Source: an uncultured Chloroflexia bacterium
GTDB taxonomy: Bacteria; Chloroflexota; Limnocylindria; Limnocylindrales; CSP1-4
Reading direction: 5' to 3'
Assembly: GCA_963749705.1 (NCBI GenBank)
Contig: CAVVNQ010000010.1
Coordinates: forward strand, 64,001 to 128,000
Length of the DNA: 64,000 bases
Numbering within the stretch: position 1 is the stretch's first letter; the number at the start of each line of letters is the position of its first letter. Under the pieces are notes generated by a model. It had not been told where the DNA came from. It saw only the letters and a list, made by a program, of their open reading frames with translations, and searched no databases. The position numbers were made by a program, and so were the translations under genes. Shown in pieces: positions 4,046 to 25,811 of this stretch.

Positions 4046-5175
4046 TCGCCGTTCCCCTTCGCGCCGTCCCCGGTTGTGCCGCCTGCAGACGCGCCGTCCT
4101 CAGACGCGACGTCCGCGCCCACCAGCTCGAGATAGCGCTCCTCCAGGCTGGCGGCACCGACGCGGAGCTCGGTGATCAACAGCCCGCGCTCGGCACACCA
4201 TGCGGCGAGCGCGGCAACCAGCTCCGGGCGGGGCGGTCCGTCGAGGCCGGCCAGCTCGTATGCGCCACCTGGCCCGGCTGCCACGACCCGCGGCGCACCG
4301 CCATCGGGGCGGACCTCGCCCGCGGGGCCGCCGCCTGTCGCGCCACCGTGCGGCGCGGTCGCCGCGGCCAGGGCTGCCGCGGCCAGCGACGCCGCGTCGC
4401 CGTCGCGCAGCGCGGACGACAACCGGAACCTCACCCGCGGCGCGCCGGCGCCGGTGAGCTCGGCGGGCGTCCCGTAGGCGACCAGGCGCCCGCGATCCAG
4501 GACGGCCACGTGATCGGCGAGGCGTTCGACATCGCCCAGCTCGTGGGTCGTGAGCAGGATGGTCGTGCCGGCCTCACGCAGCGACGCGATCCGCTCGCGG
4601 GTCGCCTGCTTCGCGGCCGGATCCATCCCCGCGGTGGGCTCATCGAGGACGAGCAGCTCCGGGCGCCCGAGCAGCGCGAGGGCCAGGCCCAGCCGCTGCT
4701 TCTCGCCGCCGGACAGCCGGCGGTACCGGGTGGTCGCGACCTGCCCGAGGTCCACCAGCTCGAGCAGCCGGTCTGGGCTCTCGGGGTCCCGGTAGAACCG
4801 CGCGTACAGCCGGAGTGCCTCGCGCGGGGTGGTCCGAGGATCGATCCCGCCGTTCTGCAGCATCAGCCCGATCCGGGGCCGGAGCCGCGCGCCGTCACGG
4901 ACGGGATCCAGGCCCAGCACCTCGACCGAGCCGGTGTCGATCCGCCGGTACCCCTCGAGGATCTCGACCGTGGTCGTCTTGCCGGCCCCGTTGGGACCGA
5001 GCAGCGCAAACAGCTCGCCCCGGTGCACCTGGAACGAGACCCCGGTCAGCACGTCCCGGCGCCCGTACGCCTTGCCGACATCGACCGCGCGGACCGCGAC
5101 GTCGCGCGCGGCGGGCTCGCGCGCGACGGTGTCGCTGGTCGCTGGCGTCGCGCCTGCCCCGGGCACGGCGTTCAC
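4042..5175 (-). CDS. ABC transporter ATP-binding protein (DrrA-like)
   Basis: GPNGAGKTT, LSGGEKQR, LVLDEPT motifs. Confidence 0.9.
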   Translation of the reverse strand: MNAVPGAGATPATSDTVAREPAARDVAVRAVDVGKAYGRRDVLTGVSFQVHRGELFALLGPNGAGKTTTVEILEGYRRIDTGSVEVLGLDPVRDGARLRPRIGLMLQNGGIDPRTTPREALRLYARFYRDPESPDRLLELVDLGQVATTRYRRLSGGEKQRLGLALALLGRPELLVLDEPTAGMDPAAKQATRERIASLREAGTTILLTTHELGDVERLADHVAVLDRGRLVAYGTPAELTGAGAPRVRFRLSSALRDGDAASLAAAALAAATAPHGGATGGGPAGEVRPDGGAPRVVAAGPGGAYELAGLDGPPRPELVAALAAWCAERGLLITELRVGAASLEERYLELVGADVASEDGASAGGTTGDGAKGNGE

Positions 5176-5636
5176 GGCCGGATCTTCGCGTACTGGGTGT
5201 CGAAGTCCGACGCGAGGACCTGGCCGACCTGCAGGCCCCGCAGCACTCCCTCGGAATCGATGAAGTACGTCTGCGGCGGCGCCACCACGTGGTACTCGGC
5301 CGCGAGCTTGCCGTCCGGATCGGGGAGCGTCGGCCAGGTCGCGCCAAAGTCATCGAGGAACTGCTGCGCGAGGTCTGCCTGGTCCTTGTACATCACCCCG
5401 ATGATCGCCAGCCCGTCCGTCGGGCCGAGGGTGTCGAGGCGCTCCTTGAACAGCGGGAACTCCTCGCGGCAGGGGGTGCACCACGACGCCCAGAAGTTGA
5501 CGATCACCGGATGGCCCCGGTACGAGGCGAGGTCGACGTGCGTGCCGTCAAGCGCGGTGCCCGTCACCTGCGGGGCGGGGTCGCCCGTCGTCGCCCCGCG
5601 GGAGCCACCGCCGCACGCCGCGACCACGAGCAGCAT
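5172..5636 (-). CDS. TlpA/ResA-like thiol-disulfide oxidoreductase (lipoprotein)
   Basis: VNFWASWCTPCREE and PQTYFID motifs; N-terminal VAAC lipobox-like. Confidence 0.9.
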   Translation of the reverse strand: MLLVVAACGGGSRGATTGDPAPQVTGTALDGTHVDLASYRGHPVIVNFWASWCTPCREEFPLFKERLDTLGPTDGLAIIGVMYKDQADLAQQFLDDFGATWPTLPDPDGKLAAEYHVVAPPQTYFIDSEGVLRGLQVGQVLASDFDTQYAKIRP

Positions 5637-5691
5637 GACCGCGAGACCCGCGGTGAGGGTTCGTGTGGTGGTTGCCCGGGACGTGGTGGGC

Positions 5692-6804
5692 CTACTGGGC
5701 CGTGACGGTCCCGGTCATGTTCGGGTGCACCGAGCAGACGAACGTGTACGTGCCGGCCGGCAGGGCGGGAACCTGGTACACGATGACCTTGGGACCGGTG
5801 ATGATCTGGCCCTTGAACAGCTCTGCGCCCGAGCTGTCATGGATCGCGACGTTGTGCGGGATCCCCGCGTCGCGATTGTCGAAGGCGAGGGTGAATGGCT
5901 TGCCGGCCGGGACGGTCAGCGTGGTCGCGTCATAGGCGATGCCTTCTGCCCCGATGGACGCGTCGGCCGCGGGCAGGCTCGGGCCCGCGGGTGCGCCGGC
6001 CGACGCGCCCGCGCCGCCTCCGCCGCCGCCGGCCGCGGGCGCTCCGCTGGCGGTGGCGCCCTGGTTCGAGTTGGGGAGCACGCCGGAGCTGAGCAGCAGG
6101 CCGCCGGCGACGATCAGCGCGAGGGCGGAGAACGTCGCCTTGGGCCACGTGGGTGCCCCGCCCAGGTCGAGGTGCCCCGTCCGGTCGGCGGTCTCGACGG
6201 CGACGTACTCGCGGCGCGCGTCGCGCAGCCAGCCGAGCAGGGTCAGTGCCAGCGCGATGATCCCGGCCAGCAGCGCCCAGCCGCCGATCACCATCCCGCC
6301 GACCAGGATCGTCATCGAGATCGCGAGCAGCAGCGGCCGGAAGGACGGCGGTGGCATGTGGACCCCCGCGGGCGGCACGCCATCGGAAGGCGCCGGGAGG
6401 GCGCCGATCGCGGCGTGCGCGGTCGGCGCCGACGCGACATGGTCGTAGTCCCGGAGCGCCTCACGACCCCAGTAGAGGAGCGTGATCGCCAGGATCAGCA
6501 CGCCGACGGCGAGCCAGATCCCCCCGGCGAACAGCCCGAACATCAGCATGAACACGCCAAACGCCGCCAGCGGCGGTGCGAACGTCGGGCCCGGCATGTG
6601 AACGCCGTCGGGCGCGACCGGCGCCACGCGCCGGATCCCGCGCCGGGTCGGCGCCGCGGTCGCGAAGCGATACGCCGTCCAGCTCACGTACAGGCCGACG
6701 AACCCTGCGAGGAACACCGGCAGCAGCTGGATCAGCGATCCCCAGTCCGGGACCACGAACGGCTGCGTGAACTCGATCAGGCCGTTCCAGAGTTCCTCGA
6801 GCAT
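5692..6804 (-). CDS. Membrane protein with two cytochrome c oxidase subunit-4-like repeats fused to a C-terminal cupredoxin domain
   Basis: Repeated GVHMP(G/P)P(T/S)F..(TM)(TM) units; C-terminal PHNV...CSVHPNM type-1 copper ligand set. Confidence 0.7.
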   Translation of the reverse strand: MLEELWNGLIEFTQPFVVPDWGSLIQLLPVFLAGFVGLYVSWTAYRFATAAPTRRGIRRVAPVAPDGVHMPGPTFAPPLAAFGVFMLMFGLFAGGIWLAVGVLILAITLLYWGREALRDYDHVASAPTAHAAIGALPAPSDGVPPAGVHMPPPSFRPLLLAISMTILVGGMVIGGWALLAGIIALALTLLGWLRDARREYVAVETADRTGHLDLGGAPTWPKATFSALALIVAGGLLLSSGVLPNSNQGATASGAPAAGGGGGGAGASAGAPAGPSLPAADASIGAEGIAYDATTLTVPAGKPFTLAFDNRDAGIPHNVAIHDSSGAELFKGQIITGPKVIVYQVPALPAGTYTFVCSVHPNMTGTVTAQ

Positions 6805-6814
6805 CGGTTGTGCG

Positions 6815-7000
6815 TCAGCTCCGCTTCAACCCGGCGAACAGGACGTACGCCATGATCGACATCGCGGCGCCCAGGGCGATCAGCATCGTGAGCCCGGCGT
6901 AGTCGACACGATCCGGCTCGACGATCGTCGGGAACACCCAGTAGAAGGCGGCGATCACCAGGAACAGGATACCGACGGCGGCGGCGCGGCGGGGTTTCAT
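6815..7000 (-). CDS. Small 2-TM protein in the oxidase operon (resembles N-terminal part of subunit 4/CtaF)
   Basis: 61 aa, two hydrophobic helices, AGAAGG-type RBS upstream, lies between subunit III and the cupredoxin fusion. Confidence 0.6.
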   Translation of the reverse strand: MKPRRAAAVGILFLVIAAFYWVFPTIVEPDRVDYAGLTMLIALGAAMSIMAYVLFAGLKRS

Positions 7001-7020
7001 GGGTCCTTCTCCGTCGCGGG

Positions 7021-7686
7021 CTACAGCAGGTACAGGGTGGAGAACAGCAGGATCCAGACGACGTCCACGAAGTGCCAGTAGATCGACGTCGCCTCGACCA
7101 TGTCGTGGTGGCGGGCCGAGAACTGCCCGGCCATGCCCCGGTAGAGCACCACCGACAGCATCAGCACGCCGCCGAACACGTGCGCCCCGTGGAAGCCCGT
7201 GAGCGTGAAGTACGTGGTGCCGAACGTGCCCGAGCCCATCGTCATGCCCTCGTGGAACAGGACGCCGTAGTCGTACGCCTGCAGCAGCAGGAAGGTCGCG
7301 CCGAGGATCACGGTGGCGGCGAAGTTGCGAATGAAGCCCCGCCGGTCGTCACGCCCGATCGCCCACAGGCCCATCTGGCAGGTGAACGAGGAGGTGATCA
7401 GGATCAGGGTCGCCGGCAGGATCAGGTTGAGATCGCCGTGCTCGGTGGTCAGGCGGAACGGGTTGAGGATCCCGGCGAACTCGCTCGGCGGCCAGCGGTG
7501 GATCCCGTCGGTGTCGATGAAGCTCGCCCGGATGCTGAAGTAGGCGGCGAACAGCCCGGCGAAGAACATCACCTCGGAGGTGATGAACAGGAGCATCCCC
7601 AGGACCGGGATGCCGATCCCGCCGGACCCATGGGCGTCGGCCGGGGCGTGGTCCGCGGTGGTGATCACCTGCGCGTCTGCGGTCAT
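7021..7686 (-). CDS. ctaE: Cytochrome c oxidase subunit III
   Basis: LFITSEVMFFAGLF, TGFHGAHV, YWHFVDVVW motifs; RBS GAGGAG before MTADAQ. Confidence 0.93.
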   Translation of the reverse strand: MTADAQVITTADHAPADAHGSGGIGIPVLGMLLFITSEVMFFAGLFAAYFSIRASFIDTDGIHRWPPSEFAGILNPFRLTTEHGDLNLILPATLILITSSFTCQMGLWAIGRDDRRGFIRNFAATVILGATFLLLQAYDYGVLFHEGMTMGSGTFGTTYFTLTGFHGAHVFGGVLMLSVVLYRGMAGQFSARHHDMVEATSIYWHFVDVVWILLFSTLYLL

Positions 7687-7699
7687 CGTCTCGCCCTCC

Positions 7700-9322
7700 T
7701 CAGTGATCCGCGACCCGGCCGTGCCGGGCATCGAACACCGGGCGCTCCGAGCGGATCTCGGGCAGGTGGTCGAAGTTGTACGGGGGCGGCGGCGACGAGG
7801 TCGCCCATTCGAGCGTGTTCGCTCCCCACGGGTCGTCGCCGGCGATCTTGCCGCTGCGCAGCGAGACCAGCACGTTCCAGAAGAACGGCAGCATGCTGGT
7901 GGCGATGACGAACCCGCCGATGGTCGCCGCGAGGTTGAGCTCGCTCCAGCCCGCGTTGGCCGCGTAGTCGGCGATCCGCCGCGGCATCCCGGCCAGGCCC
8001 AGCTGGTGCATCGGGAAGAACGTCAGGTTGAAGCCCACGAACATGAGCACGAACTGGATCTTGCCCAGCGTCTCGTCGAGCATCCGGCCGGTCATCTTGG
8101 GGAACCAGTAGTAGATCCCGGCGAACACCCCGAACACGGAGCCGCCGAACAGCACGTAGTGCAGGTGCGCGACCACCCAGTAGGTGTCGTGGAGCGCAAA
8201 GTCCACCGGTACCGCCGCCGAGAACGCGCCGTTGAGGCCACCGATCAGGAACAGCGTCAGGAAGCCGATCGCGAACAGGAGCGGGGTCGCGAAGGTGAGC
8301 TTGCCCCGCCACAGGGTCGCGATCCAGTTGAACATCTTGACGCCCGTCGGGACGGCGATCAGGAACGTCATCAGGCTGAAGAACGGCAGGAACACCGAGC
8401 CCGTGGTGAACATGTGGTGGGCCCACACCGAGAAGCCGAGGGCGCCGATGCCGACCGTCGCGAACACGAACGCCTTGTAGCCGAACAGCGGCTTGCGCGA
8501 GAAGACGGGCAGCACCTCGGACACGATGCCCATCGCGGGCAGGATCATGATGTAGACCGCCGGGTGCGAGTAGAACCAGAACACGTTCTGGTACAGGACC
8601 GCCTGGCCGCCGTTCGCCGGATCGAAGAAGTTGCCGCCGTAGTTGCGGTCGATGAACAGCATGATCAGGGCGCTGGTGAGCACCGGCGTCGCCATCAGCA
8701 CGAGCACGCTCGTGACGAGCACCGTCCACACCAGGATCGGCATCCGGAACAGGGTCATGCCCGGCGCCCGCATCTTGAAGATCGTGACCAGGAAGTTGAC
8801 CGCGCCCAGGATGGAGCTGGTCCCGATCAGGGTGAGCCCCACGATCCACAGGTCCGTGCCCGCTCCGTTGAACTTCGCACCGGCCAGGGGCGGGTACTCC
8901 GTCCAGCCGGACGCCGCGGCGCCGCCCGAAGCGAGGAAGCCCGAGGCCATCAGGGCGCCACCCAGCGGCAGCAGCCAGAACGACAGCGCGTTGATCCGCG
9001 GGAACGCCATGTCCGGCGCCCCGATCTGGAGCGGGACGGCGTAGTTCCCGAACCCCGCCAGGATCGGGATGATGAACAGGAACAGCATGAACGAGGCGTG
9101 CATCGTGAACGCCTGGTTGTAGAACGACTCGCTCACGAGCTGCATCCCGGGCTGGGCGAGCTCGAGCCGGACGACCAGCGCGAGGATCCCTCCGGCCAGG
9201 AAGAACAGGATCGAGTTGACCAGGTACATGATCCCGATCTTCTTGTGATCGGTGGTCGTCAGCCATGCGTACAGGCCGCTTCGATAGGCTGGAGCGGCGG
9301 GGTTGAGGGTCGTCGTGGCCAT
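7700..9322 (-). CDS. ctaD: Cytochrome c oxidase subunit I (type A2)
   Basis: TDHKKIG, DMAFPRIN, WFYSHPAVY, VWAHH, HLHYV, GMPRR motifs. Confidence 0.97.
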   Translation of the reverse strand: MATTTLNPAAPAYRSGLYAWLTTTDHKKIGIMYLVNSILFFLAGGILALVVRLELAQPGMQLVSESFYNQAFTMHASFMLFLFIIPILAGFGNYAVPLQIGAPDMAFPRINALSFWLLPLGGALMASGFLASGGAAASGWTEYPPLAGAKFNGAGTDLWIVGLTLIGTSSILGAVNFLVTIFKMRAPGMTLFRMPILVWTVLVTSVLVLMATPVLTSALIMLFIDRNYGGNFFDPANGGQAVLYQNVFWFYSHPAVYIMILPAMGIVSEVLPVFSRKPLFGYKAFVFATVGIGALGFSVWAHHMFTTGSVFLPFFSLMTFLIAVPTGVKMFNWIATLWRGKLTFATPLLFAIGFLTLFLIGGLNGAFSAAVPVDFALHDTYWVVAHLHYVLFGGSVFGVFAGIYYWFPKMTGRMLDETLGKIQFVLMFVGFNLTFFPMHQLGLAGMPRRIADYAANAGWSELNLAATIGGFVIATSMLPFFWNVLVSLRSGKIAGDDPWGANTLEWATSSPPPPYNFDHLPEIRSERPVFDARHGRVADH

Positions 9323-9332
9323 CCCTGTTCCC

Positions 9333-10463
9333 TTACTGGACCGTGAGCGTGCCGGTCATGTTCGGATGAACGGTGCACTGGAAGGTGTAGGTGCCAGCCG
9401 TGAGGGCCGGGACGGAATAGTTGGTATCCGACGGGCCGGTGATGATGTCGCCCTTGAACGCGACCTTGCCGCTCCCGTCCTTGATCTCGACATCGTGCGG
9501 GACGCTGGCGTCGTCGTTCTTGAAATGGATCGTGAACGGCTGGCCGGCCGGCGCCTGGAGATCGCCCGTCGAGAACGCGATGTTCTGCGCGGCGAGCTCG
9601 ACCACGGGTCCCTCGGCGGCGCCCGACGCGGCCGGCGCCGGCGTCGCGCTCGCCGCCTCGATCTGCTGCTGGAGCCAGGTGTCGAAGTCCGCCTTCGGGA
9701 TCGCGTGGACGTCGAACACCATCGAGCCGTGGAACGGGCCGCACAGCTCCGCGCACTGACCTCGATACGTGCCGGCCTCATCCACGGTGAAGTCGAACGT
9801 GTTCGTCTTGCCCGGGATCACGTCCCGCTTGAACAGGAACTTGGGGACGTAGAACGCGTGGATCACGTCCAGGCTGCGGAGGCTCACCTGGACGGGCTCG
9901 CCCACGGGCAGGAACAGGCCGCCGGTGTCGCCCACCGGAAGCGCCTGCGAGAACAGCACCTTGGCATCGGGGCCATCGGGCCCGTCGAGGTAGTCGAACG
10001 ACCACTGGAACCGCGCGGCGACCGCGCGCACGTAGATGTCGCTGGGCGTCTTCGCATCGACCGTGTTGAGGGTCTGCCACGACATCACGAACAGGAACGC
10101 GACGATGACCGTCGGGATCGCGGTCCAGATGATCTCGACCAGGTTGTTGCCGTGGATCTGCGGCGGCAGCTCATCGTCGCCCGGCTTGCGTCGATAGCGG
10201 AAGACCGTGAACACGATCACGCCTTCGACCAGGATGAAGATCGCGGCCGCGATATAGAACACGATGTCGTACAGGGACTTGGTGCTGTGCGATCGATCGG
10301 TGACCCCGTCACCGCCGGCCACCGGGAAGAAGCTGTCCCAGACCCCGGACAGCGTCGCGCCCGACGCGTACAGGACGATCACGGCGACCGCGATGGCCAA
10401 CAGGATGAGCAGTCCGGCAACAAGGGCGCCGGACCCGGTCCTCGACCGGGGGGGCATCGACAT
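9333..10463 (-). CDS. ctaC: Cytochrome c oxidase subunit II with C-terminal cupredoxin domain
   Basis: DVIHAF and CAELCGPFHGSM CuA ligands; extra C-terminal PHDV...CTVHPNM domain. Confidence 0.93.
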   Translation of the reverse strand: MSMPPRSRTGSGALVAGLLILLAIAVAVIVLYASGATLSGVWDSFFPVAGGDGVTDRSHSTKSLYDIVFYIAAAIFILVEGVIVFTVFRYRRKPGDDELPPQIHGNNLVEIIWTAIPTVIVAFLFVMSWQTLNTVDAKTPSDIYVRAVAARFQWSFDYLDGPDGPDAKVLFSQALPVGDTGGLFLPVGEPVQVSLRSLDVIHAFYVPKFLFKRDVIPGKTNTFDFTVDEAGTYRGQCAELCGPFHGSMVFDVHAIPKADFDTWLQQQIEAASATPAPAASGAAEGPVVELAAQNIAFSTGDLQAPAGQPFTIHFKNDDASVPHDVEIKDGSGKVAFKGDIITGPSDTNYSVPALTAGTYTFQCTVHPNMTGTLTVQ

Positions 10464-12801: not shown

Positions 12802-13142
12802 CGACGTGGGACGGCGCGCTGGCACTCGATGCACAGGGCGGCCCAGGGCAGCGCGTCGAGCCGCTGTTCACCGACGGCCCGGTGGCACGAGGTGCAGCGT
12901 CCGAAGGTGCCGGCCTCGAGGCGCTCGAGGGCGGCCTCGACGGCCGCCAGGTGCTGCTCGTTGCGATCGCGCAGGGCGAGATCGCGCTGCTGGTCGACGA
13001 CGTGGCTGGCCGCCGCGGCCTGCGAGCCGTAGGTCATCGGGCCCGGCGCCTCGATCCGGAGCTCCCTGAGCTCGCCGACGACCCGGGCCCGCTCGGCCAG
13101 GAGCGCGGCGCGGCGGTCGGCGATGGTGGTCGGATCGTCCAT
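12798..13142 (-). CDS. TraR/DksA C4-type zinc finger protein
   Basis: ALERLEAGTFGRCTSC...RLDALPWAALCIECQ. Confidence 0.85.
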   Translation of the reverse strand: MDDPTTIADRRAALLAERARVVGELRELRIEAPGPMTYGSQAAAASHVVDQQRDLALRDRNEQHLAAVEAALERLEAGTFGRCTSCHRAVGEQRLDALPWAALCIECQRAVPRR

Positions 13143-13260
13143 GGTGGCCGATGCTACAACCCGGCCGTCCGCACGGTGGAGGGCCGTTCGGCCGATCCAT
13201 TCGGGCTGCGGTAGCCTCGATGCCAGCATCGACAACCGACTGAACCCACTGGAGATCGCG

Positions 13261-13434
13261 ATGGCCATCGTCAAGGACCCTGTATGCGGCATGGACGTCG
13301 ACACCGAGACGTCGCAGCTGTCGCTGGAGCACGACGGCAAGACCTACTGGTTCTGCGGCAAGGGCTGCCTGCTCGAGTTCAAGGACGATCCCGAGAAGTA
13401 CCTCGATCCGGCGTACGAACCCCAGGGCATGTGA
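13261..13434 (+). CDS. YHS domain protein
   Basis: KDPVCGM..TYWFCGKGC..F..DPEKY; RBS GGAG. Confidence 0.9.
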   Translation: MAIVKDPVCGMDVDTETSQLSLEHDGKTYWFCGKGCLLEFKDDPEKYLDPAYEPQGM

Positions 13435-13464: not shown

Positions 13465-15252
13465 ATGTGCGGTGTCTTTGGCTACGTCACGAACCGGGAC
13501 GTGGCTCTCGGGCCGATCCTGGTCGAGGCCGCCCAGCGGCTCACCTACCGCGGCTACGACTCGGTGGGAGCCGCCACCTTCCGCGACGGCGCGATCGACC
13601 TGCGCAAGGACGTCGGCAAGGTGGATGCGGTGGCCGAGCGCCACGGCCTGCGCGAGATGCGTGGCAGCCGCGGGATCACGCAGCTGCGCTGGGCCACCTT
13701 CGGCGAGCCGTCGCCGCGCAACGCCCAGCCGCACCTCGACTCGGACGGCGGGATGTGCGGCGCCCACAACGGCAACGTGGTCAACAACCTCGAGCTGATG
13801 GCCGAGTTCACGGCCGAGGGCATGACCGTCCGCTCCGAGAATGACGGCGAGACCTGCGTCCACGCGGTGGAGCGCTACCTCCGGCGCGGCGAGGCGCCCA
13901 TCGACGCGATCCGCCATGCCTACGACGACCTCGCGGGCGACTACGCCTTCGTCATCGGCCGGGCGCAGGACGATCGCCTGTACGCGTTCAAGAAGGGCTC
14001 GGGGATGGTCGTCGGCATCGGCGACGGCTTCACCTGCGTGTCGTCGGACCTGCCGTCGATCCTGCCCCTCACCCGGCGTGTCGTTCGTCCGCGCGACGGC
14101 GAGATCGTGACGCTGTGGGCGGACCGTGTCGAGGTCCGCTCGGTCGCGGACGGGGGCCTCGTCGACCGACCGGTCGAGCTCGTCACCGAGACCATGGAGG
14201 CGGCCCAGAAGGGTGGCTACCCACACTTCATGGCCAAGGAGATCCACGAGCAGCCGCAGGTCGCTCGCGAGCTGCTCCACCTGCTCGACGCGAGCGCCGA
14301 TGTCGCGCCGCTCGTGGAGCAGATGCGGAGCGCGCGCAATCTCTTCCTCGTCGCCTGTGGCACCAGCTACCACGCAGCGATGCTCGGCTCGGTATACCTC
14401 GCGCAGCTCGCCGGGCGCGTGGCGATCCCGGTCCTCGCGCCCCAGTTCATCGCCCAGTACGCCCCGGGGGTCGGGCCGGGCGACGTTGGCATCTTCGTGA
14501 GCCAATCGGGCGAGACCAAGGACGTGCTCAACGCGCTCGAGGCAGCGGAGCGCCGGGGGATGACCAGCTTCGGCCTGGCCAACGTCGTCGGCTCGGCGCT
14601 GACGCGCGAGACGCGCCTGTGCCTGCCGCTGGGCTGCGGCTTCGAGATCAGCGTGCCGGCCACCAAGACGTTCACCAACCAGGTGATCGCGTTCCTGTAC
14701 CTCGCCCATCGGCTGGCGGAGCGCGACCTGGCGCCGCTCGCGAGCGTTCCGGACCTGATCGAGGCGACGATCGCGTCAGTTGCGGCGCAGGTCGAGGCCC
14801 TCGCGGCCGAGCTGGCCGACCACGACGATCTCTACTGCCTCGGCTACGGAGCCACCTACCCCATCGCGCTCGAGGGCGCCCTCAAGCTCAAGGAGGTCAC
14901 CTACGCCCACTGCGAGGGGATGCTTTCGACCGAGTTCAAGCATGGACCCCTGTCTGCCGTGAGCGCGGGCTACCCGATCCTGTTCGCGGCCGGCCCCGAC
15001 GACGTCCAGCTCATCGTCAGCGGCATCAACGAGGTCAGGGTGCGCGGGGCGCGGACGATCACGATCGCCCAGGAGGATGCGCGCCTCCGTGCCAACGGCG
15101 ACGACCTGATCCCGCTCCCGGCCGCCGACCCCCAGGTGACCGCGCTGCTCGCCGTGCTGCCGCTCCAGCTGCTCGCGTACCACATGAGCGTGCTGCGCGG
15201 CTTCGACCCCGATTTCCCGCGCAACCTGTCCAAGACGCTGACCGTCGACTGA
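13465..15252 (+). CDS. glmS: Glutamine--fructose-6-phosphate aminotransferase (isomerizing)
   Basis: MCG N-terminus, RGYDS, RWAT, HNG, SQSGET, KHGP, PRNLSK C-terminus; RBS AGGAGG. Confidence 0.88.
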   Translation: MCGVFGYVTNRDVALGPILVEAAQRLTYRGYDSVGAATFRDGAIDLRKDVGKVDAVAERHGLREMRGSRGITQLRWATFGEPSPRNAQPHLDSDGGMCGAHNGNVVNNLELMAEFTAEGMTVRSENDGETCVHAVERYLRRGEAPIDAIRHAYDDLAGDYAFVIGRAQDDRLYAFKKGSGMVVGIGDGFTCVSSDLPSILPLTRRVVRPRDGEIVTLWADRVEVRSVADGGLVDRPVELVTETMEAAQKGGYPHFMAKEIHEQPQVARELLHLLDASADVAPLVEQMRSARNLFLVACGTSYHAAMLGSVYLAQLAGRVAIPVLAPQFIAQYAPGVGPGDVGIFVSQSGETKDVLNALEAAERRGMTSFGLANVVGSALTRETRLCLPLGCGFEISVPATKTFTNQVIAFLYLAHRLAERDLAPLASVPDLIEATIASVAAQVEALAAELADHDDLYCLGYGATYPIALEGALKLKEVTYAHCEGMLSTEFKHGPLSAVSAGYPILFAAGPDDVQLIVSGINEVRVRGARTITIAQEDARLRANGDDLIPLPAADPQVTALLAVLPLQLLAYHMSVLRGFDPDFPRNLSKTLTVD

Positions 15253-15433
15253 CGGCGGCGGCAGGCGGACCCGAGACCGGCGACCCTGGCACATTCGAGC
15301 AACGGTCCAGCACGCGTAAGTCGCAGATAAGCGGCGCGCGCGATGCTGCCAGCCCGCACCCATCGATCGGGCACTCCTCGGAGGGATCGGCGCGTGCGGT
15401 CGATGCCTGGCCCGCCGGGTGGAGGTTGTGCCC

Positions 15434-15532
15434 ATGGACGCCGTTGTGCGCCGTGTCCTCGCCGTCCGAATTGGTGCGCCGGCGCTCGCGCTCGCGCTGG
15501 CCGTCCTCATCGAGGGAGCCAAGCGATGGTGA
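15434..15532 (+). CDS. 32-aa peptide MDAVVRRVLAVRIGAPALALALAVLIEGAKRW (GAKRW family, copy 1)
   Basis: GGAGG at 15421-15425, 8 nt before ATG; fills an intergenic gap; same length and C-terminus as the peptide at 25518-25616. Confidence 0.7.
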   Translation: MDAVVRRVLAVRIGAPALALALAVLIEGAKRW

Positions 15533-15625
15533 CCGCCAGTCCTGACCTGGGTCGCTGCGAGCACGGCCGCCGCTGGTAGCCCGGCGCCATCGCTCGGGCT
15601 CGGGCCCGCCGCCGGTGTCCCCGGA

Positions 15626-16423
15626 TCAGCCGCGCCCGCCCGCGATCGCACCGCCGTCGGACGTGATCCGCGAGGCGAGGTAGACCGGGATCACGGACAG
15701 CAGGATCGCGACCATCCCGGCGACGTTCACCAGCGGAACCTGGTTGGCGAGCCGGAAGCTCTGGAAGATCCAGATCGGGAGCGTCCGGGTCCCGCCAGCG
15801 GTGAAGATCGTCACGATCACCTCGTCGAAGGAGAGGGCGAACGCCAGCAGGCCGCCGGCGATCAGCGCGCTGCGGATCGCGGGAAACGTGATCTTGCGGA
15901 AGGTCATGAACGTGTCCGCGCCCAGGTCCGCGGACGCCTCCTCGAACGAGCGCGAGACCCGCCGCAGTCGGGCGATCACGTTGTTGTAGACGAGCACGAT
16001 GCAGAACGTCCCGTGGCCGACCACGATCGCCGCCATGCCCAGCGGAAAGCCCACCGTCGCGAACGTCGTGCTGAGCGCCATCCCGGTCACGATCCCGGGC
16101 AGCGCGATCGGGAAGATGACGACGAACGAGATGGTCTCGCGACCGAAGAACCGATACCGGGCCACCGCGAGCGCCGCCAGCGTCCCCAGCACGAGCGCGA
16201 TCGCCGTGGCGCCCAGGGCGACGGTCACCGACGTCATGAACGCCTCGCGCAGGCCGGTGTTCGCCAGCGCATCGAGCAACCAGGTCGTCGTGAACCCGGA
16301 CGGCGGCCACGCGGACGTGCCGCTCGAGTTGAACGCATAGACGACGACCAGCAGCAGCGGCACGTAGATGAACGCGAGCACGAGGGCGGTGATCGAGCGG
16401 AGCAGGAACCTTGCCGCCATCAC
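15626..16423 (-). CDS. potC: Polyamine-type ABC transporter permease (PotC-like)
   Basis: EEASADLGA EAA motif, FALSFDE, TLP. Confidence 0.85.
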   Translation of the reverse strand: MMAARFLLRSITALVLAFIYVPLLLVVVYAFNSSGTSAWPPSGFTTTWLLDALANTGLREAFMTSVTVALGATAIALVLGTLAALAVARYRFFGRETISFVVIFPIALPGIVTGMALSTTFATVGFPLGMAAIVVGHGTFCIVLVYNNVIARLRRVSRSFEEASADLGADTFMTFRKITFPAIRSALIAGGLLAFALSFDEVIVTIFTAGGTRTLPIWIFQSFRLANQVPLVNVAGMVAILLSVIPVYLASRITSDGGAIAGGRG

Positions 16424-19871: not shown

Positions 19872-20441
19872 ATGCGTTCGTCACCCGCCCGATTCCCGCT
19901 GCTGCTCCTGCTGGCCGTCGCGGCTGCGCTCGGAGCCTCGTCCTGCGACGCGGCAGCACCGCCCGGCACGCCGCCCATCACGCCCGGGACGAGCGCATCG
20001 CCGCGCGAGATCAACATCGTTGCCCACGACTACGCGTTCGTGCCGTCGGTGGTCGATCTCGTGCCCGGCGAGACCGTGCTGCTCCATGTCGTCAATGGCG
20101 GGCTGGAGACGCACGAGGCGATCATCGGGGATCTCGGCGAGCAGCTCGCCTGGGAGGCGGCGGAGGACGCCACCGCGGGCAGCCCGCCGGGCCCCACGCC
20201 ATTCGTCGCGGCGCCGCCGGGGTTCCGCGGGGTCCGCGTGGTGGTGGGCTCGGGCCAGCGGGTCGACGTGACCTGGACCGTCCCGGCCGACGCCGCCTCC
20301 ACGGCCGCCGGCTGGTTCGTCGGCTGCCACATCCCCGGCCACTGGCAGAAGGGGATGGTGGTCGCGGTCCGCTTCGTGGACGCTGCCGGTGTGCCGCTCG
20401 CGAGCCCGCCCGCGCTGCCCGTGCCCAGCCCGGGTGGCTGA
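19872..20441 (+). CDS. Exported cupredoxin-domain lipoprotein
   Basis: Signal peptide with ASSC, THEAIIG, GCHIPGHWQKGM type-1 Cu motif. Confidence 0.75.
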   Translation: MRSSPARFPLLLLLAVAAALGASSCDAAAPPGTPPITPGTSASPREINIVAHDYAFVPSVVDLVPGETVLLHVVNGGLETHEAIIGDLGEQLAWEAAEDATAGSPPGPTPFVAAPPGFRGVRVVVGSGQRVDVTWTVPADAASTAAGWFVGCHIPGHWQKGMVVAVRFVDAAGVPLASPPALPVPSPGG

Positions 20442-20613: not shown

Positions 20614-20901
<288 letters not shown>

Positions 20902-20986
20902 TCGTCCGCGGCACCCCCCTGGCCCGGAGCCCAGCCCCCACGGCGCACCCGGCAGCGGTTTCGTGGCGCGCCCGTAGACTGATCGC

Positions 20987-21914
20987 GTGCGAATCGTCTC
21001 CCTCCTGCCTTCGGCGACCGAGACCGTGTTTGCGCTCGGGCTCGGAGGCGAGCTCGTCGGCATCAGCCACGATTGTGACTACCCGCCGGCGGTGCGCGAT
21101 ATCCGCGTGGTCACGACGGCAGCCCGTGACCTGTCGGTCGCCTCGTCGCATGCGATCCACCGGCAGGTCGAGGGATCGGTCGCGGCCGGCGAGTCGCTCC
21201 ACGTGCTGGACGTGGCCGCCCTCGAGGAGCTCCGTCCGGACCTGATCCTGACCCAGGACCTGTGTCGCGTGTGTGCCGTCGGCTACCGCGAGGTCAGCGA
21301 GGTCGCGAGGCGGCTCGAGGGCGAGGTGAGCGTCGTGAGCCTGGAGCCCACGTCGATCGAAGGCATCCTCAACTCGATCCAGACGGTGGGCGCGATGACG
21401 GAGGCGGAGGACGAGGCCGTGGGCCTGGTCGAGGAGCTGCGCGAGCGCCTCCGGGCGGTCGAGGAGATCGTGGGCTCGCGGCGGCAGGGCGGCTTCGTCC
21501 CGCCTCGCGTCGTGGCCGTCGAATGGCTGGACCCGCCGTTCGCGGTCGGCCACTGGGTTCCCGAGCAGGTGCGGCGGGCCGGCGGCTGGGAGCTGCTGGG
21601 CCACGAGGGCGACCACTCGGTCAGAGACGAGCTGGGACGCCTTGCGCGAGGTCGACGCCGAGATCATCGTCCTCATGCCGTGCGGGTTCGACCTCGAGCG
21701 CACCGTCCGCGAGTGGGGCGAGCTGCCGCGCCCGGCCGGGTGGCACGACCTGCGCGCGGTGCAGGACGGGCGCGTCTATGCGGTGGATGGGTCGGCCTAC
21801 TTCTCGCGCCCGGGTCCCAGGGTCGTGGACGGGATCGAGGTCCTGGCGGAGGTGATCGACCCGCTCGCGTTCGACGGGATGGCGCCGCCCGACAGCTGGG
21901 CCAGGGTCGGCTGA
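20987..21914 (+). pseudogene. BtuF/cobalamin-binding-like substrate-binding protein, frameshifted near 21623
   Basis: MRIVSLLPSATE, SHDCDYP, TQDLCRVC, EWLDPPF..GHWVPE, then C-terminus (MPCGF, YFSRPGPRVVDGIE) in another frame; removing one A restores V-E-T-S-W-D-A-L-R-E. Confidence 0.75.
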
Positions 21915-21940
21915 GCCGGCGCCCGGCGTACTCTCCGGCC

Positions 21941-22843
21941 ATGCCCCACCGCACCCGGTTCGACTGCCTGTGGTGCGGTACGACCTGGTCGGTGCGCGGC
22001 GCCGACGATCTCGAGGGCTGGGCCCAGCTGTGCCCGGATTGCCTCGGCAAGGCCGGCACGAACACCTTCCTCCGTGGACGCCTCCGGACGGCGATCGAGC
22101 AGCGCGCGGCGGCCGGCGCCGCGGATCCCGCCGCAGCCCCCGCCGCGGCCTCTGCCGTTGCGCCCGCCGTGGCCCCCGCCGTGGCCCCGGTGCCGGCATC
22201 AACAGGGCCGCGCGCGCCGCACCGCGCGCTGCGCCCGCCGGCGATGGCCCTGCCCGACGACTGGTTCCTGCGGCGGGGCGAGTTCGAGCGGGGCGCGATC
22301 CACGATGCCGCCTGGAACGCGGAGCTCGACGTCGTCACCCGGTGGCTGGACGAGGCGCCCATCTCGGGGCAGATCGAGGAGCCGGCCGCCGGCGTCGGCT
22401 TCTTCTCGCCCCTCCTCGCCGGCAGGGGCGAGCTGCATGCCTCGGACGCCGACGGCGATGCCCTCGACCGCGCCCGCGAGCGGCTCGTCGCGCATCGCCT
22501 GCTTGCGCACCTCCATGTCGAGGATCCGTGGGCGCCCGCCGATGGCCATGCGGAAAGCACGGGCCCTGCGGATGCGGTCGTCGCCGCGTTCCTGCTGGGG
22601 CGCGTGCGGGGCGCCGGGCTCGATGCCGCGGTCCGGTCGCTGCGGTCCCGGCTGCGCCGCGGGGGGCGGCTGGCGGTCATCGACCTGCGACCGGATCCGG
22701 CTGCCGGCCTCCCCGCGGGTCTCGACTGGACCTGGCACGATCCGGCCGTGCTGGAGGCGGCCCTCGCACGGGCGGGGTTCGCGGGCATCGAGCTCACCAC
22801 GACCGGTCGGTTCTTCGTGCTCGTCCGCGCGGTCGCCGCCTGA
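21941..22843 (+). CDS. N-terminal CxxC..CxxC zinc ribbon fused to a degenerate class I SAM methyltransferase-like domain
   Basis: CLWC...CPDC; DDWFLRRG; EPAAGVGFFS motif-I-like; LRRGGRLAVID. Confidence 0.6.
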   Translation: MPHRTRFDCLWCGTTWSVRGADDLEGWAQLCPDCLGKAGTNTFLRGRLRTAIEQRAAAGAADPAAAPAAASAVAPAVAPAVAPVPASTGPRAPHRALRPPAMALPDDWFLRRGEFERGAIHDAAWNAELDVVTRWLDEAPISGQIEEPAAGVGFFSPLLAGRGELHASDADGDALDRARERLVAHRLLAHLHVEDPWAPADGHAESTGPADAVVAAFLLGRVRGAGLDAAVRSLRSRLRRGGRLAVIDLRPDPAAGLPAGLDWTWHDPAVLEAALARAGFAGIELTTTGRFFVLVRAVAA

Positions 22844-25361: not shown

Positions 25362-25465
25362 CCGAGCGCCGGCGCTGACCGACCGCCGGCGCGGCTGACC
25401 GATTGCGCCTCGGCCCGATCGAGCCGCAATCGACGACCGATCGAGCGCCGCCCCCGGGAATCCAA

Positions 25466-25493
25466 GAGCCGCCGGGTGGGCCCCCGGCGGCTC
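25466..25493 (-). terminator. Intrinsic terminator-like hairpin after the GAKRW peptide (possibly shared with the convergent PRODH gene)
   Basis: 11-bp perfect stem GAGCCGCCGGG / CCCGGCGGCTC, followed on the minus strand by TTGGATT. Confidence 0.6.
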
Positions 25494-25517
25494 AGGCCTC
25501 GGCGGTGAGGCGGATGG

Positions 25518-25616
25518 CTACCAGCGCTTGGCGCCGTTGATCACGAAGGCGAACGCGGCGAGGCTGCCGAGGAAGAGGGTGGCGCGGTGCGCGTACCACT
25601 TGAGCGTGGGCTTCAT
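25518..25616 (-). CDS. 32-aa peptide MKPTLKWYAHRATLFLGSLAAFAFVINGAKRW (GAKRW family, copy 2)
   Basis: AAGGA RBS 6 nt before ATG, GC3-rich codons, downstream hairpin, paralog at 15434-15532. Confidence 0.75.
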   Translation of the reverse strand: MKPTLKWYAHRATLFLGSLAAFAFVINGAKRW

Positions 25617-25811
25617 GATGTTTCCTTTTCCCATGAGTGCGAGGTGGGCCCCTCGCGAGGAGGGATCCGAACGTACGCGCTCCGCGGTACCAGGAGGAAT
25701 GACCCGTTGGTACTGGTACCCACTCGCCTTAAGGCGGAGTTGCGGCGCCGCACCACGTCCGGGCGGGCCGGCGGGGAACCGTGACGCTGCTCCAGGTGGA
25801 CCGATCGCGAC

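Follow-up and report, generated by a model that had tools for sequence, protein, structure and literature searches.

A 64,000-nucleotide (nt) stretch of DNA from an uncultured Chloroflexia bacterium (assembly GCA_963749705.1, contig CAVVNQ010000010.1, positions 64,001 to 128,000; hereafter the window) carries two open reading frames (ORFs) of 32 codons, copy 1 and copy 2, which are very probably real genes forming one family of mini-proteins with a common C-terminal tail. Copy 1 overlaps a 17-codon gene, ORF2, whose product has a similar end. We tentatively favour a reading in which the two 32-residue products would be N-in/C-out single-helix accessory or regulatory subunits of a membrane complex, acting by helix packing.

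Results

Two mini-genes share a C-terminal tail

The preliminary description of this DNA had pointed to a GGAGG ribosome-binding site and an ORF in the gap between glmS and potC, and to a second peptide of the same length, 32 amino acids (aa), ending in INGAKRW. Both are present in the sequence and the flanking genes were correctly named; the start given for copy 1 (15421), however, is the position of the Shine-Dalgarno (SD) sequence, and the start codon lies at 15434 (Table 1). Based on Pfam, copy 1 (type B) lies between a gene with SIS and glutamine-amidotransferase domains (glmS-like, ending at 15252) and a convergent ABC permease gene (BPD_transp_1, potC-like, ending at 15626). Copy 2 (type A) is flanked by a convergent proline dehydrogenase (ProDH) gene and, upstream on the same strand across a gap of 195 nt, by a gene for a GAF-HisKA-HATPase kinase.

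The genome (3.6 Mb, 71.5% G+C, 22 contigs, assembly 88% complete) contains GAKRW only twice in the six-frame translation of its 3,595,848 bases, in the tails of copies 1 and 2. Since position-wise residue frequencies predict 0.03 GAKRW tails among the 75,286 tails, the likeness of the two exceeds chance. A scan for tails of the form G-x-[KR]-[KR]-W-stop, as proposed in the preliminary description, returned 12, and the ten besides copies 1 and 2 are Arg-rich off-frame products. The only RW-tailed mini-ORFs found in this assembly are copy 2, copy 1 and ORF2, the remaining two matches of the genome scan being the C-termini of 289- and 378-aa proteins. In these two frames (about 3230 on the minus strand, which is G000:C10:67230, and G000:C15:119322), a terminal hydrophobic helix is followed by ...(K/F)FRW(D/E), so that a basic-Trp end after the last helix is not unique to mini-proteins.

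Both types are conserved in the genus and under coding selection

Within the genus (24 genomes), six-frame searches matched copy 2 in 23 and copy 1, at E ≤ 1, in 16. Small ORFs with a GAKRW tail were found in 30 of the 40 genus loci fetched; they fall into types A and B, which keep fixed syntenic positions and lie 6-10 kb apart in several genomes, as they do here. All 20 type-B genus loci examined have an intact ORF of 31-35 aa with the GAKRW tail. The two types share just 22-41% identity, while type A proteins are 59-81% identical to each other within the genus, the corresponding values being 71-97% for ProDH and about 54-94% for the kinase. M1, G28, A29, K30, R31 and W32 are invariant among 28 aligned genus sequences. 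Every chosen start is preceded at 5-10 nt by an SD of the GGAGG or AAGGA type: a GGAGG-like site 6-10 nt ahead of the start in every type-B locus compared, and an AAGGA/GGAA-type site in all type-A loci compared.

The ratio of nonsynonymous to synonymous substitution rates (dN/dS) for 22 distinct type A genes is 0.42 in the reading frame, while the other two frames give 1.10 and 2.35, with proportions of synonymous and nonsynonymous differences (pS and pN) of 0.375 and 0.191 and with third codon positions varying most; this test left out one of the 23 type-A loci (L072, tail RWF). For the last 24 codons of type B the ratio is 0.79 in frame against 0.92 and 1.16 off frame, a pattern in which the hydrophobic part seems to drift almost freely and the tail alone is fixed. 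Different genes encode the tail by differing codons (Arg as CGC, CGA, CGT, CGG or AGG; Gly as GGC, GGA, GGG or GGT), and selection therefore acts on the protein. The preliminary description had argued likewise from the tail codons of the two copies, GGA GCC AAG CGA TGG TGA vs GGC GCC AAG CGC TGG TAG, which it quoted exactly. Coding selection is borne out by the dN/dS values, but the codons of copy 1 are largely set by the overlapping ORF2, which that description had missed. Its view that the two peptides represent a real, dispersed family conserved at the protein level agrees with their conservation in the genus and, as described below, in the wider family.

A 17-codon gene overlaps the end of copy 1

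ORF2 was first noticed in the flank alignment as a conserved block right after the type B stop codon; its frame is the end of a 78-aa ORF. Its ATG arises from cgATGg within the Arg31-Trp32 codons of copy 1, 4 nt ahead of the copy 1 stop, and the Glu27-Gly28 codons of copy 1 contain its SD-like site. Of 20 type-B loci in the genus, 18 have ORF2, with the start retained as ATG, GTG or TTG and with a tail of the form G-x-C-x-H-(G/A)-R-R-W, which reads HGRRW at its end in this window. Over its last 10 codons dN/dS is 0.40 in the reading frame but 2.02 and 1.17 in the other two, and the Arg residues of the tail are written CGC, CGT, CGG or AGG. Of 12 type-B loci from other genera, only two (L110 and L127) have an overlapping ORF that ends in RRW; a third such case, L107, belongs to the genus itself.

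The overlap accounts for the unusual codons of copy 1, because GGA belongs to the ORF2 SD and CGA supplies the A of the ORF2 start. Within the genus, 17 of 20 type B genes use CGA for Arg31, whereas 23 of 23 type A genes use CGC; GGA encodes Gly28 in 13 of 20 and 3 of 23, respectively. Odd synonymous codons in a small ORF, such as GGA and CGA at 71% G+C, can thus flag an embedded SD and start codon. The arrangement suggests that ORF2 is translationally coupled to copy 1, and the two are probably made together and act together.

The family extends to other genera and a sister family

A profile built from the genus alone gave no credible match in other genera (4 of 234 genomes, E 0.0045-0.008, inside frames of 278-436 aa). 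Restriction to the genus was nevertheless rejected: synteny-anchored searches revealed it to be an artefact of tail divergence, the profile having missed other genera because their tails differ. Anchoring on YHS genes recovered a small hydrophobic type B ORF downstream of YHS at 13 of 28 loci in other genera, with tails that include EAGKRW(L/C/S), EAGRRWV, EAGQRWGH and EPLGKRWMA. Anchoring on the ProDH C-terminus recovered a convergent type-A-like ORF at 13 of 26 loci, likewise in other genera (for example MTTLKLQTFRVLLALTTLASAALVLEAGKRWF at L151). In other genera of the window's family the tail reads (L/V)EAG(K/R)RW, and ORF length, start codon and SD are retained even where alignment at the DNA level is lost. 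The numbers for other genera are minimum values, as the tail and hydrophobicity filters can miss variants. The counts leave out L098 (17 type-B regions; no GAKRW ORF by pattern) and L128 (no start codon found), and genome G248 entered only the anchor-search tallies, with no locus, peptide or claim taken from it.

In 54 aligned sequences R31 and W32 are the only invariant residues. A profile of these sequences, run against 400 genomes sampled across the phylum, matched 8 of 23 genomes in the window's family and 2 of 16 in a sister family of the same class; at this sensitivity there was no match in 361 genomes from 80 other families, the small-genome sister family f2 (0 of 4) among them. In a scan of 185,579 species, each represented by a single genome, the peptide pattern [FI][VI][IV][DNG]GAKRW turned up 251 stretches; the 23 that were confirmed all lie in metagenome-assembled genomes titled Chloroflexi, Chloroflexia or Candidatus Limnocylindrales. 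As far as searched, the family appears confined to the class Limnocylindria (Chloroflexota).

Among 1.84 billion representative proteins (clusters at 50% identity), 105 matched at E ≤ 1e-3, nearly all being 30-36 aa long or consisting of an RW mini-protein unit to which a spurious extension is joined at the N-terminus. A third kind of unit, type C (e.g. VKANLARF...GAGMRW), occurs after EAL-DUF5317 or HD-GYP-DUF5317 gene pairs. It stands in tandem with a type-A-like unit, 8 nt apart or overlapping, at L166, L167 and L171 (other genera and the sister family), and the 70-aa representative P0023 holds two units in a single chain. Genomes have two to four paralogues, and the tandem and two-unit forms suggest that paralogues work together.

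The products are predicted to be single membrane helices

Family members are 29-43 aa long (median 32), within the size of small accessory membrane proteins (fewer than about 50 residues, a single predicted transmembrane helix). In 54 sequences the uncharged core has a median of 15 residues (range 11-24) and a Kyte-Doolittle hydropathy of 2.3. The net positive charge of the N flank exceeds that of the C flank in 48 of the 54, equals it in 6 and is never less; by the established positive-inside rule, this asymmetry predicts an N-in/C-out orientation. AlphaFold2 run on 26 type A sequences gives one continuous helix over residues 3-30 (mean predicted local distance difference test score, pLDDT, 88). 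In type A (26 sequences from several genera), L16, R31 and W32 are invariant and K6, R11 and A20 at least 90% conserved. As we read our alignment, L16, A20, position 27 (D/E/N) and R31, at i, i+4 spacing, may form one helical face.

Small residues occupy the -3 and -1 positions of a possible cleavage site, some 9 residues short of the C-terminus, in every type A member and in many of type B, and are absent from the type B members L027, L028, L029 and L031. In some members 0-3 variable residues follow the Trp. A complex prediction for type A with type B scored 0.04 against a mark of 0.32, was made without controls and is no evidence either way. An alignment-free AlphaFold2 model of P0023 gave one 67-residue helix with no hairpin, and is uninformative on helix packing.

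Database and literature searches reveal no described family

Neither peptide, nor a 37-aa GTG-extended form, matched any NCBIfam or Pfam family at E ≤ 10, and PADLOC and PHROGs gave 0 matches at E ≤ 1. A profile search of the PDB returned one chance-level match (E = 0.44), and the Atlas only 'hypothetical protein' clusters (0.84-0.89). In the searched literature (supplements lay outside the search), GAKRW occurred only in designed antimicrobial peptides; EAGKRW, EAGRRW, GAKRW and HGRRW otherwise retrieved unrelated texts only. 'YHS domain' and 'small membrane protein' did not occur together in the searched literature, and no paper on DUF5317 was found there. The earlier statement that no described family has this motif is consistent with the lack of matches in Pfam, NCBIfam, PADLOC, PHROGs and the PDB and with the silence of the searched literature.

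Gene neighbourhoods

On the type B side the order of genes in the genus is a pyridoxal-phosphate-dependent enzyme (-), a DksA/TraR zinc-finger protein (-), [YHS (+)], [insertions such as glmS], type B with ORF2 (+), [a potABCD-like operon (-)], ferredoxin (+), ..., proC and [DUF421]. On the type A side it is [ProDH (+)], type A (-), [GAF-kinase and GAF protein (-)] and an alanine-racemase-like gene (+). Bracketed genes vary among genomes, so that no single neighbour goes with either peptide throughout. Of 16 type-B loci of the genus, 10 have YHS upstream, and ProDH is next to type A at 15 of 23. The pair of a GAF protein and a GAF-histidine kinase between the alanine-racemase-like gene and type A is present at 14 of 23 loci and absent at 9. 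In this window the glmS-like gene (13465-15252, +) stands between YHS and type B, which are 130-330 nt apart in most relatives; its presence there suggests a local insertion or rearrangement.

In other genera, the type-A-like gene follows a gene for a DUF5317 membrane protein on the same strand at 11 of 13 loci, at a gap of about 200-260 nt. A conserved gene pair of EAL (or HD-GYP) and then DUF5317, with a mini-ORF about 250 nt downstream, was seen at L174:2-1286, L175:1846-3079 and L171:1878-3091. On contig C5 of this genome, a DUF5317/HD-GYP pair is not followed by a small ORF. Altogether the neighbours seen comprise glmS, ABC permease, YHS, DksA/TraR, ProDH, DUF421, GAF, GAF-His kinase, alanine-racemase-like, EAL, HD-GYP and DUF5317 genes; no RNPP/Rgg-type receptor gene was found among the neighbours of the examined loci.

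Flanking non-coding elements and transcription

The flank alignment of copy 1 covered 15 loci, 14 of type B and one of type A (L049). Its conserved upstream block, judged from sequence, is a candidate promoter or operator. The upstream box of copy 2, in which GTAC, G, A and T are invariant among 31 sequences from several genera, may likewise be a promoter or operator. The hairpin behind type A begins about 25 nt past the stop, has an 11-bp G+C-rich stem and is unchanged or almost unchanged in 23 of 23 loci, L081 and L083 showing paired G>A/C>T changes. The 63 nt that hold it here (25455-25517) fold at -37.8 kcal/mol (z = -4.4). A terminator consensus scan did not call this hairpin, the T-run criterion being unmet, and sigma-70 and terminator consensus scans around both genes gave 0 sites. 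Rfam gave 0 matches at gathering score across the whole window.

Table 1. Mini-genes, their flanking elements and the YHS-domain gene in the window
Feature	Position	Strand	Description
YHS-domain gene (metal-binding type)	13123-13434	+	Pfam YHS 3.2e-17; conserved ahead of type B family-wide, with glmS in between here
Upstream block of copy 1	15317-15347	+	Direct repeat TAAGTCGCAG-ATAAGCGGC (~11-nt period; TAAG-N6-ATAAG), then GATGCT; conserved
Leader element of copy 1	15364-15389	+	Inverted repeat CGATCGGGCACTCCTCGGAGGGATCG between upstream block and SD; conserved in most of 14 type-B loci
SD of copy 1	15421-15425	+	GGAGG, 8 nt ahead of ATG
Copy 1 (type B)	15434-15532	+	32-aa one-helix mini-protein MDAVVRRVLAVRIGAPALALALAVLIEGAKRW, tail IEGAKRW; ATG 15434, stop TGA 15530-15532
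SD-like site of ORF2	15512-15518	+	GAGGGAG in the copy 1 Glu27-Gly28 codons, 7 nt before ORF2 ATG
ORF2	15526-15579	+	17 aa, MVTASPDLGRCEHGRRW; overlaps copy 1 by 7 nt (ATGGTGA)
3' hairpin of copy 2	25460-25493	-	GAGCCGCCGGG/CCCGGCGGCTC, then TTGGATT; terminator-like
Copy 2 (type A)	25518-25616	-	32-aa one-helix mini-protein MKPTLKWYAHRATLFLGSLAAFAFVINGAKRW, tail INGAKRW; ATG 25616, stop TAG 25520-25518
SD-like site of copy 2	25622-25627	-	AAGGAA, 5 nt ahead of ATG
TAnnnT-type hexamer	25670-25675	-	TACGTT, 22-23 nt downstream of copy 2 box at fixed spacing; possible -10
Upstream box of copy 2	25699-25721	-	GGGTACCAGTACC-N4-GGGTCAT, ~85-105 nt before ATG; conserved across genera

Several other accounts of these elements were rejected. 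A conserved structured leader or riboswitch for type A found no support from RNAalifold, which gave 0 pairs for 31 upstream regions from several genera; local hairpins can be made out by eye in the alignment of the genus. An opposite-strand ORF (MTRWYWYP...) over the copy 2 box shows non-conservative changes (W/R/Q) and the rare codons TTA, AGG and AGT, and its frame has a third-position G+C content of about 67%, compared with about 93% for genes here. LexA/SOS control was discarded since the box in the lexA promoter, GAAC-N4-GTTC, differs from the type A palindrome, GGTAC-N2-GTACC. In the lexA promoter itself (L177, G000:C5 upstream of 28163, -), the spacer of TTGACA-N17-TATGAT contains the GAAC-N4-GTTC box; this textbook promoter indicates that the lineage uses canonical sigma-70 promoters and a Gram-positive-type SOS box. 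Extended GGTAC/GTACC half-site palindromes (TGTACCAnnTGGTACATGTACCAnnTGGTACA-like) outside the window, at G000:C3:89325 and G000:C9:22082, are probably operators of some regulator. The arrangement G[GA]G[CT]CAT-N21-24-TAnnnT occurs at 6 sites in the genome, compared with roughly 20 expected by a rough estimate, and gives no regulon signal.

Nineteen sequencing runs were matched, one with at least half of the words; the sole RNA run, X8 (sediment metatranscriptome contigs), contributed 3 short contigs without strand or end information. One of them, 110 nt long, covers 25468-25577 with 4 differences, a weak hint, given possible DNA carry-over, that a close relative transcribes copy 2.

Further observations in the window

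A cytochrome c oxidase gene cluster (5172-10463, -) lies 5 kb upstream of copy 1. Its ORF at 9333-10463 has COX2_TM and COX2 domains and an extra C-terminal cupredoxin/plastocyanin-like domain by Pfam, the COX2 ORF being the only one of the cluster checked, and is followed on the same strand by ORFs of 540, 236 and 61 aa. The ORF at 19947-20438 (+) has good coding statistics, a C-terminus ...GCHIPGHWQKGM and no Pfam match; we take the spacing of its Cys, His and Met residues to be the one that type-1 copper sites typically show. Counting the YHS gene and the oxidase as well, the region is rich in putative copper proteins. Between ferredoxin and proC, the frames 20891-21703 (-), 21642-21911 (+) and 21676-22800 (-) have gene-like codon-position G+C and no Pfam match at E ≤ 0.001.

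Discussion

A possible role in membrane complexes

Among the options raised in the preliminary description, single-pass membrane regulators fit the data best. Copies 1 and 2 would then be translated, bitopic membrane mini-proteins of about 32 residues built of four parts: a basic N-flank, predicted to be cytoplasmic, a core of about 15 uncharged and mostly small residues, a continuation of the helix through an acidic residue and Gly/Ala, and an Arg-Trp end. The invariant Arg-Trp, at or near the C-terminus, is predicted to lie at the outer membrane interface. Most likely, as in the known mini-proteins KdpF, AcrZ, MgtS and sarcolipin, the helix would pack onto the transmembrane helices of a partner, either a larger membrane protein or a paralogue, with the (D/E)-(G/A)-(G/A)-(K/R)-R-W end serving as an interfacial clamp or recognition site that stabilises or tunes the partner. 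Type B would be made together with ORF2, a 17-aa soluble peptide with Cys-x-His and an RRW end. Gene order in the wider family suggests two candidate contexts, a DUF5317 membrane protein with an EAL or HD-GYP enzyme in the lineage of copy 2, and a YHS-domain metal-binding protein in that of copy 1.

We hold this reading with somewhat less than even confidence, and several observations weigh against it. Translation in vivo, membrane insertion, orientation, the partner and the effect on it are all inferred, and that this applies to the partner, to translation and to membrane location counts against the proposal itself. In this genome neither copy shares an operon with a membrane-protein gene: copy 1 has glmS on one side and a convergent permease on the other, and copy 2 a cytoplasmic GAF-histidine kinase and a convergent ProDH. 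The neighbours also vary: of 23 type-A loci 14 have the kinase and 9 lack it, YHS is absent from 6 of 16 type-B loci of the genus, and three DUF5317-ProDH loci have no peptide. The uncharged core (median 15 residues, range 11-24) is short for a bilayer span, and that of type B evolves near-neutrally without a conserved packing face, composition and tail alone being kept. Finally, if the tail is external, it and a cytoplasmic ORF2 could not present their shared RRW end to a single reader. It is this shared end that raises another, unlikely account, namely that (G/A)(K/R)RW is a recognition tag through which types A, B and C and ORF2 engage one common partner in a new peptide-based regulatory module. 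Such a module would be wired to the turnover of cyclic di-GMP (c-di-GMP), through EAL/HD-GYP with DUF5317, and to the YHS metal-binding protein; the same data would also fit tails released as lineage-specific extracellular signals.

Release of the tail is central to a further explanation, which the preliminary description had put forward as a Phr/PapR-like pheromone precursor yielding (E/N)GAKRW. The N-region and hydrophobic stretch would be an export or processing signal, and a signal peptidase or, as with streptococcal SHP peptides, a site-2 protease would free the C-terminal 8-10 residues, ...(D/E)GAKRW, as a diffusible signal. Such a precursor would have the basic N flank, the hydrophobic stretch and the predicted external C-terminus seen here; type B, which keeps its last 5-6 residues only while the rest drifts (dN/dS 0.79), resembles a leader with a mature peptide; the small -3/-1 residues of all type A and many type B members are suitably placed, and GAF-kinase, EAL and HD-GYP genes are frequent neighbours. 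At the examined loci, however, no peptide-sensing receptor, exporter, oligopeptide importer or peptidase is conserved nearby, and by Pfam the neighbouring kinase consists of GAF, HisKA and HATPase domains only and lacks any that is external or in the membrane. Particular positions within the supposed leader are conserved in type A, and the putative cleavage site falls within the hydrophobic helix, continuous over residues 3-30, with no polar c-region. The small residues are missing from four type B members, the Trp is followed by 0-3 variable residues, and ORF2 has a like tail with no export signal. A signalling role is therefore improbable, if still worth bearing in mind. Membrane-perturbing peptides, either RNA-checked type I toxin-like or leaderless bacteriocin-like, are a slightly poorer prospect. 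The products are small, cationic, hydrophobic and Trp-containing, and the genes stand alone with a conserved upstream region of 190-260 nt and a strong 3' hairpin, in several paralogues per genome, some of them tandem. Yet they occupy fixed syntenic sites among housekeeping genes family-wide and evolve about as fast as their neighbours, which is neither patchy nor mobile behaviour; the upstream palindrome differs from the organism's LexA box, no immunity or ABC-exporter gene is conserved nearby, and PADLOC gave no match.

It is very unlikely that translation itself is what matters, with (K/R)RW-stop slowing termination and thereby controlling ORF2 initiation or the fate of the mRNA. Type A, type B and ORF2 do share (K/R)-R-W-stop, ORF2 initiation overlaps copy 1 termination, and the leaders are long and conserved; but there is nothing downstream to control, type A being followed by the hairpin and the convergent ProDH, and ORF2 by the convergent permease (47 nt away here) or a gap of about 0.8-1.1 kb. 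The tolerated residues past the Trp speak against a stalling signal, for which a conserved hydrophobic helix and length would be needless, and RNAalifold found no consensus structure in the type A leader. That the ORFs are not genes at all, only chance frames within conserved non-coding RNA or DNA elements, strikes us as exceedingly improbable. Their flanks are strongly conserved at the DNA level too, and GCC AAG CGC TGG in type A is almost invariant even at third positions. Against this, type A and ORF2 have a dN/dS that is clearly lower in frame than off frame, differing codons preserve the tail, length, start and SD are kept in every locus, other genera included, and only 0.03 GAKRW tails were expected. 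The remaining probability we keep for mechanisms that we have not thought of.

Small membrane proteins are systematically overlooked by gene callers, and the present family, with at least 105 clusters at 50% identity in public metagenomes, has neither a name nor a Pfam entry. It offers a testable case in Limnocylindria, a widespread uncultured soil lineage. Should a partner be found in DUF5317 with EAL/HD-GYP, or in YHS, this would provide the first functional handle on DUF5317 and a new example of mini-protein control of membrane or second-messenger machinery.

Comparison with known systems

The RW mini-proteins resemble KdpF, AcrZ, MgtS/MgtR, CydX and sarcolipin/phospholamban in having about 30-50 residues, one transmembrane helix and no enzymatic domain. 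Proteins of the KdpF, AcrZ and MgtS type act by packing against a larger transporter or oxidase, and in sarcolipin (31 aa) a short conserved luminal C-terminal tail matters for function. The RW family has no sequence similarity to these small accessory proteins (0 Pfam or NCBIfam matches). KdpF and CydX are encoded in the operon of their partner (AcrZ and MgtS are not), whereas in this window the RW genes stand alone with their own leader and hairpin, and in other genera the type-A-like gene mostly follows DUF5317; the family also differs in its two to four paralogues per genome and in an Arg-Trp end shared with a coupled soluble mini-ORF.

The SHP, Phr, PapR and AimP precursors of Firmicutes and phages are alike in their basic N-end and hydrophobic stretch, and their active part is the C-terminal 5-9 residues, just as type B conserves its C-terminal motif only. 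Their genes, however, adjoin an Rgg/RNPP receptor and need an oligopeptide importer, none of which is seen among the RW gene neighbours at the examined loci; type A conserves 'leader' positions, and the phylum is another. Type I toxins such as TisB, Ibs, Ldr and Fst share a length of about 20-50 residues, hydrophobicity, a charged end, long structured leaders and several copies per genome, but the RW genes have family-wide fixed synteny, no LexA box and housekeeping-like conservation.

A small membrane protein is a known kind of thing. What appear to be new are the invariant RW end, the paralogues at fixed loci, the tandem and two-unit forms, and a coupled mini-ORF with a like end. The last of these can be set beside coupled overlapping gene pairs (ATGA/ATGnTGA), which copy 1 and ORF2 match in their ATGGTGA overlap and in the SD inside the upstream gene. 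A stop/start overlap with an internal SD is the usual arrangement for equimolar subunits; unlike in the usual coupled pairs, both partners here are mini-proteins, of 32 and 17 aa, and both end in (K/R)RW.

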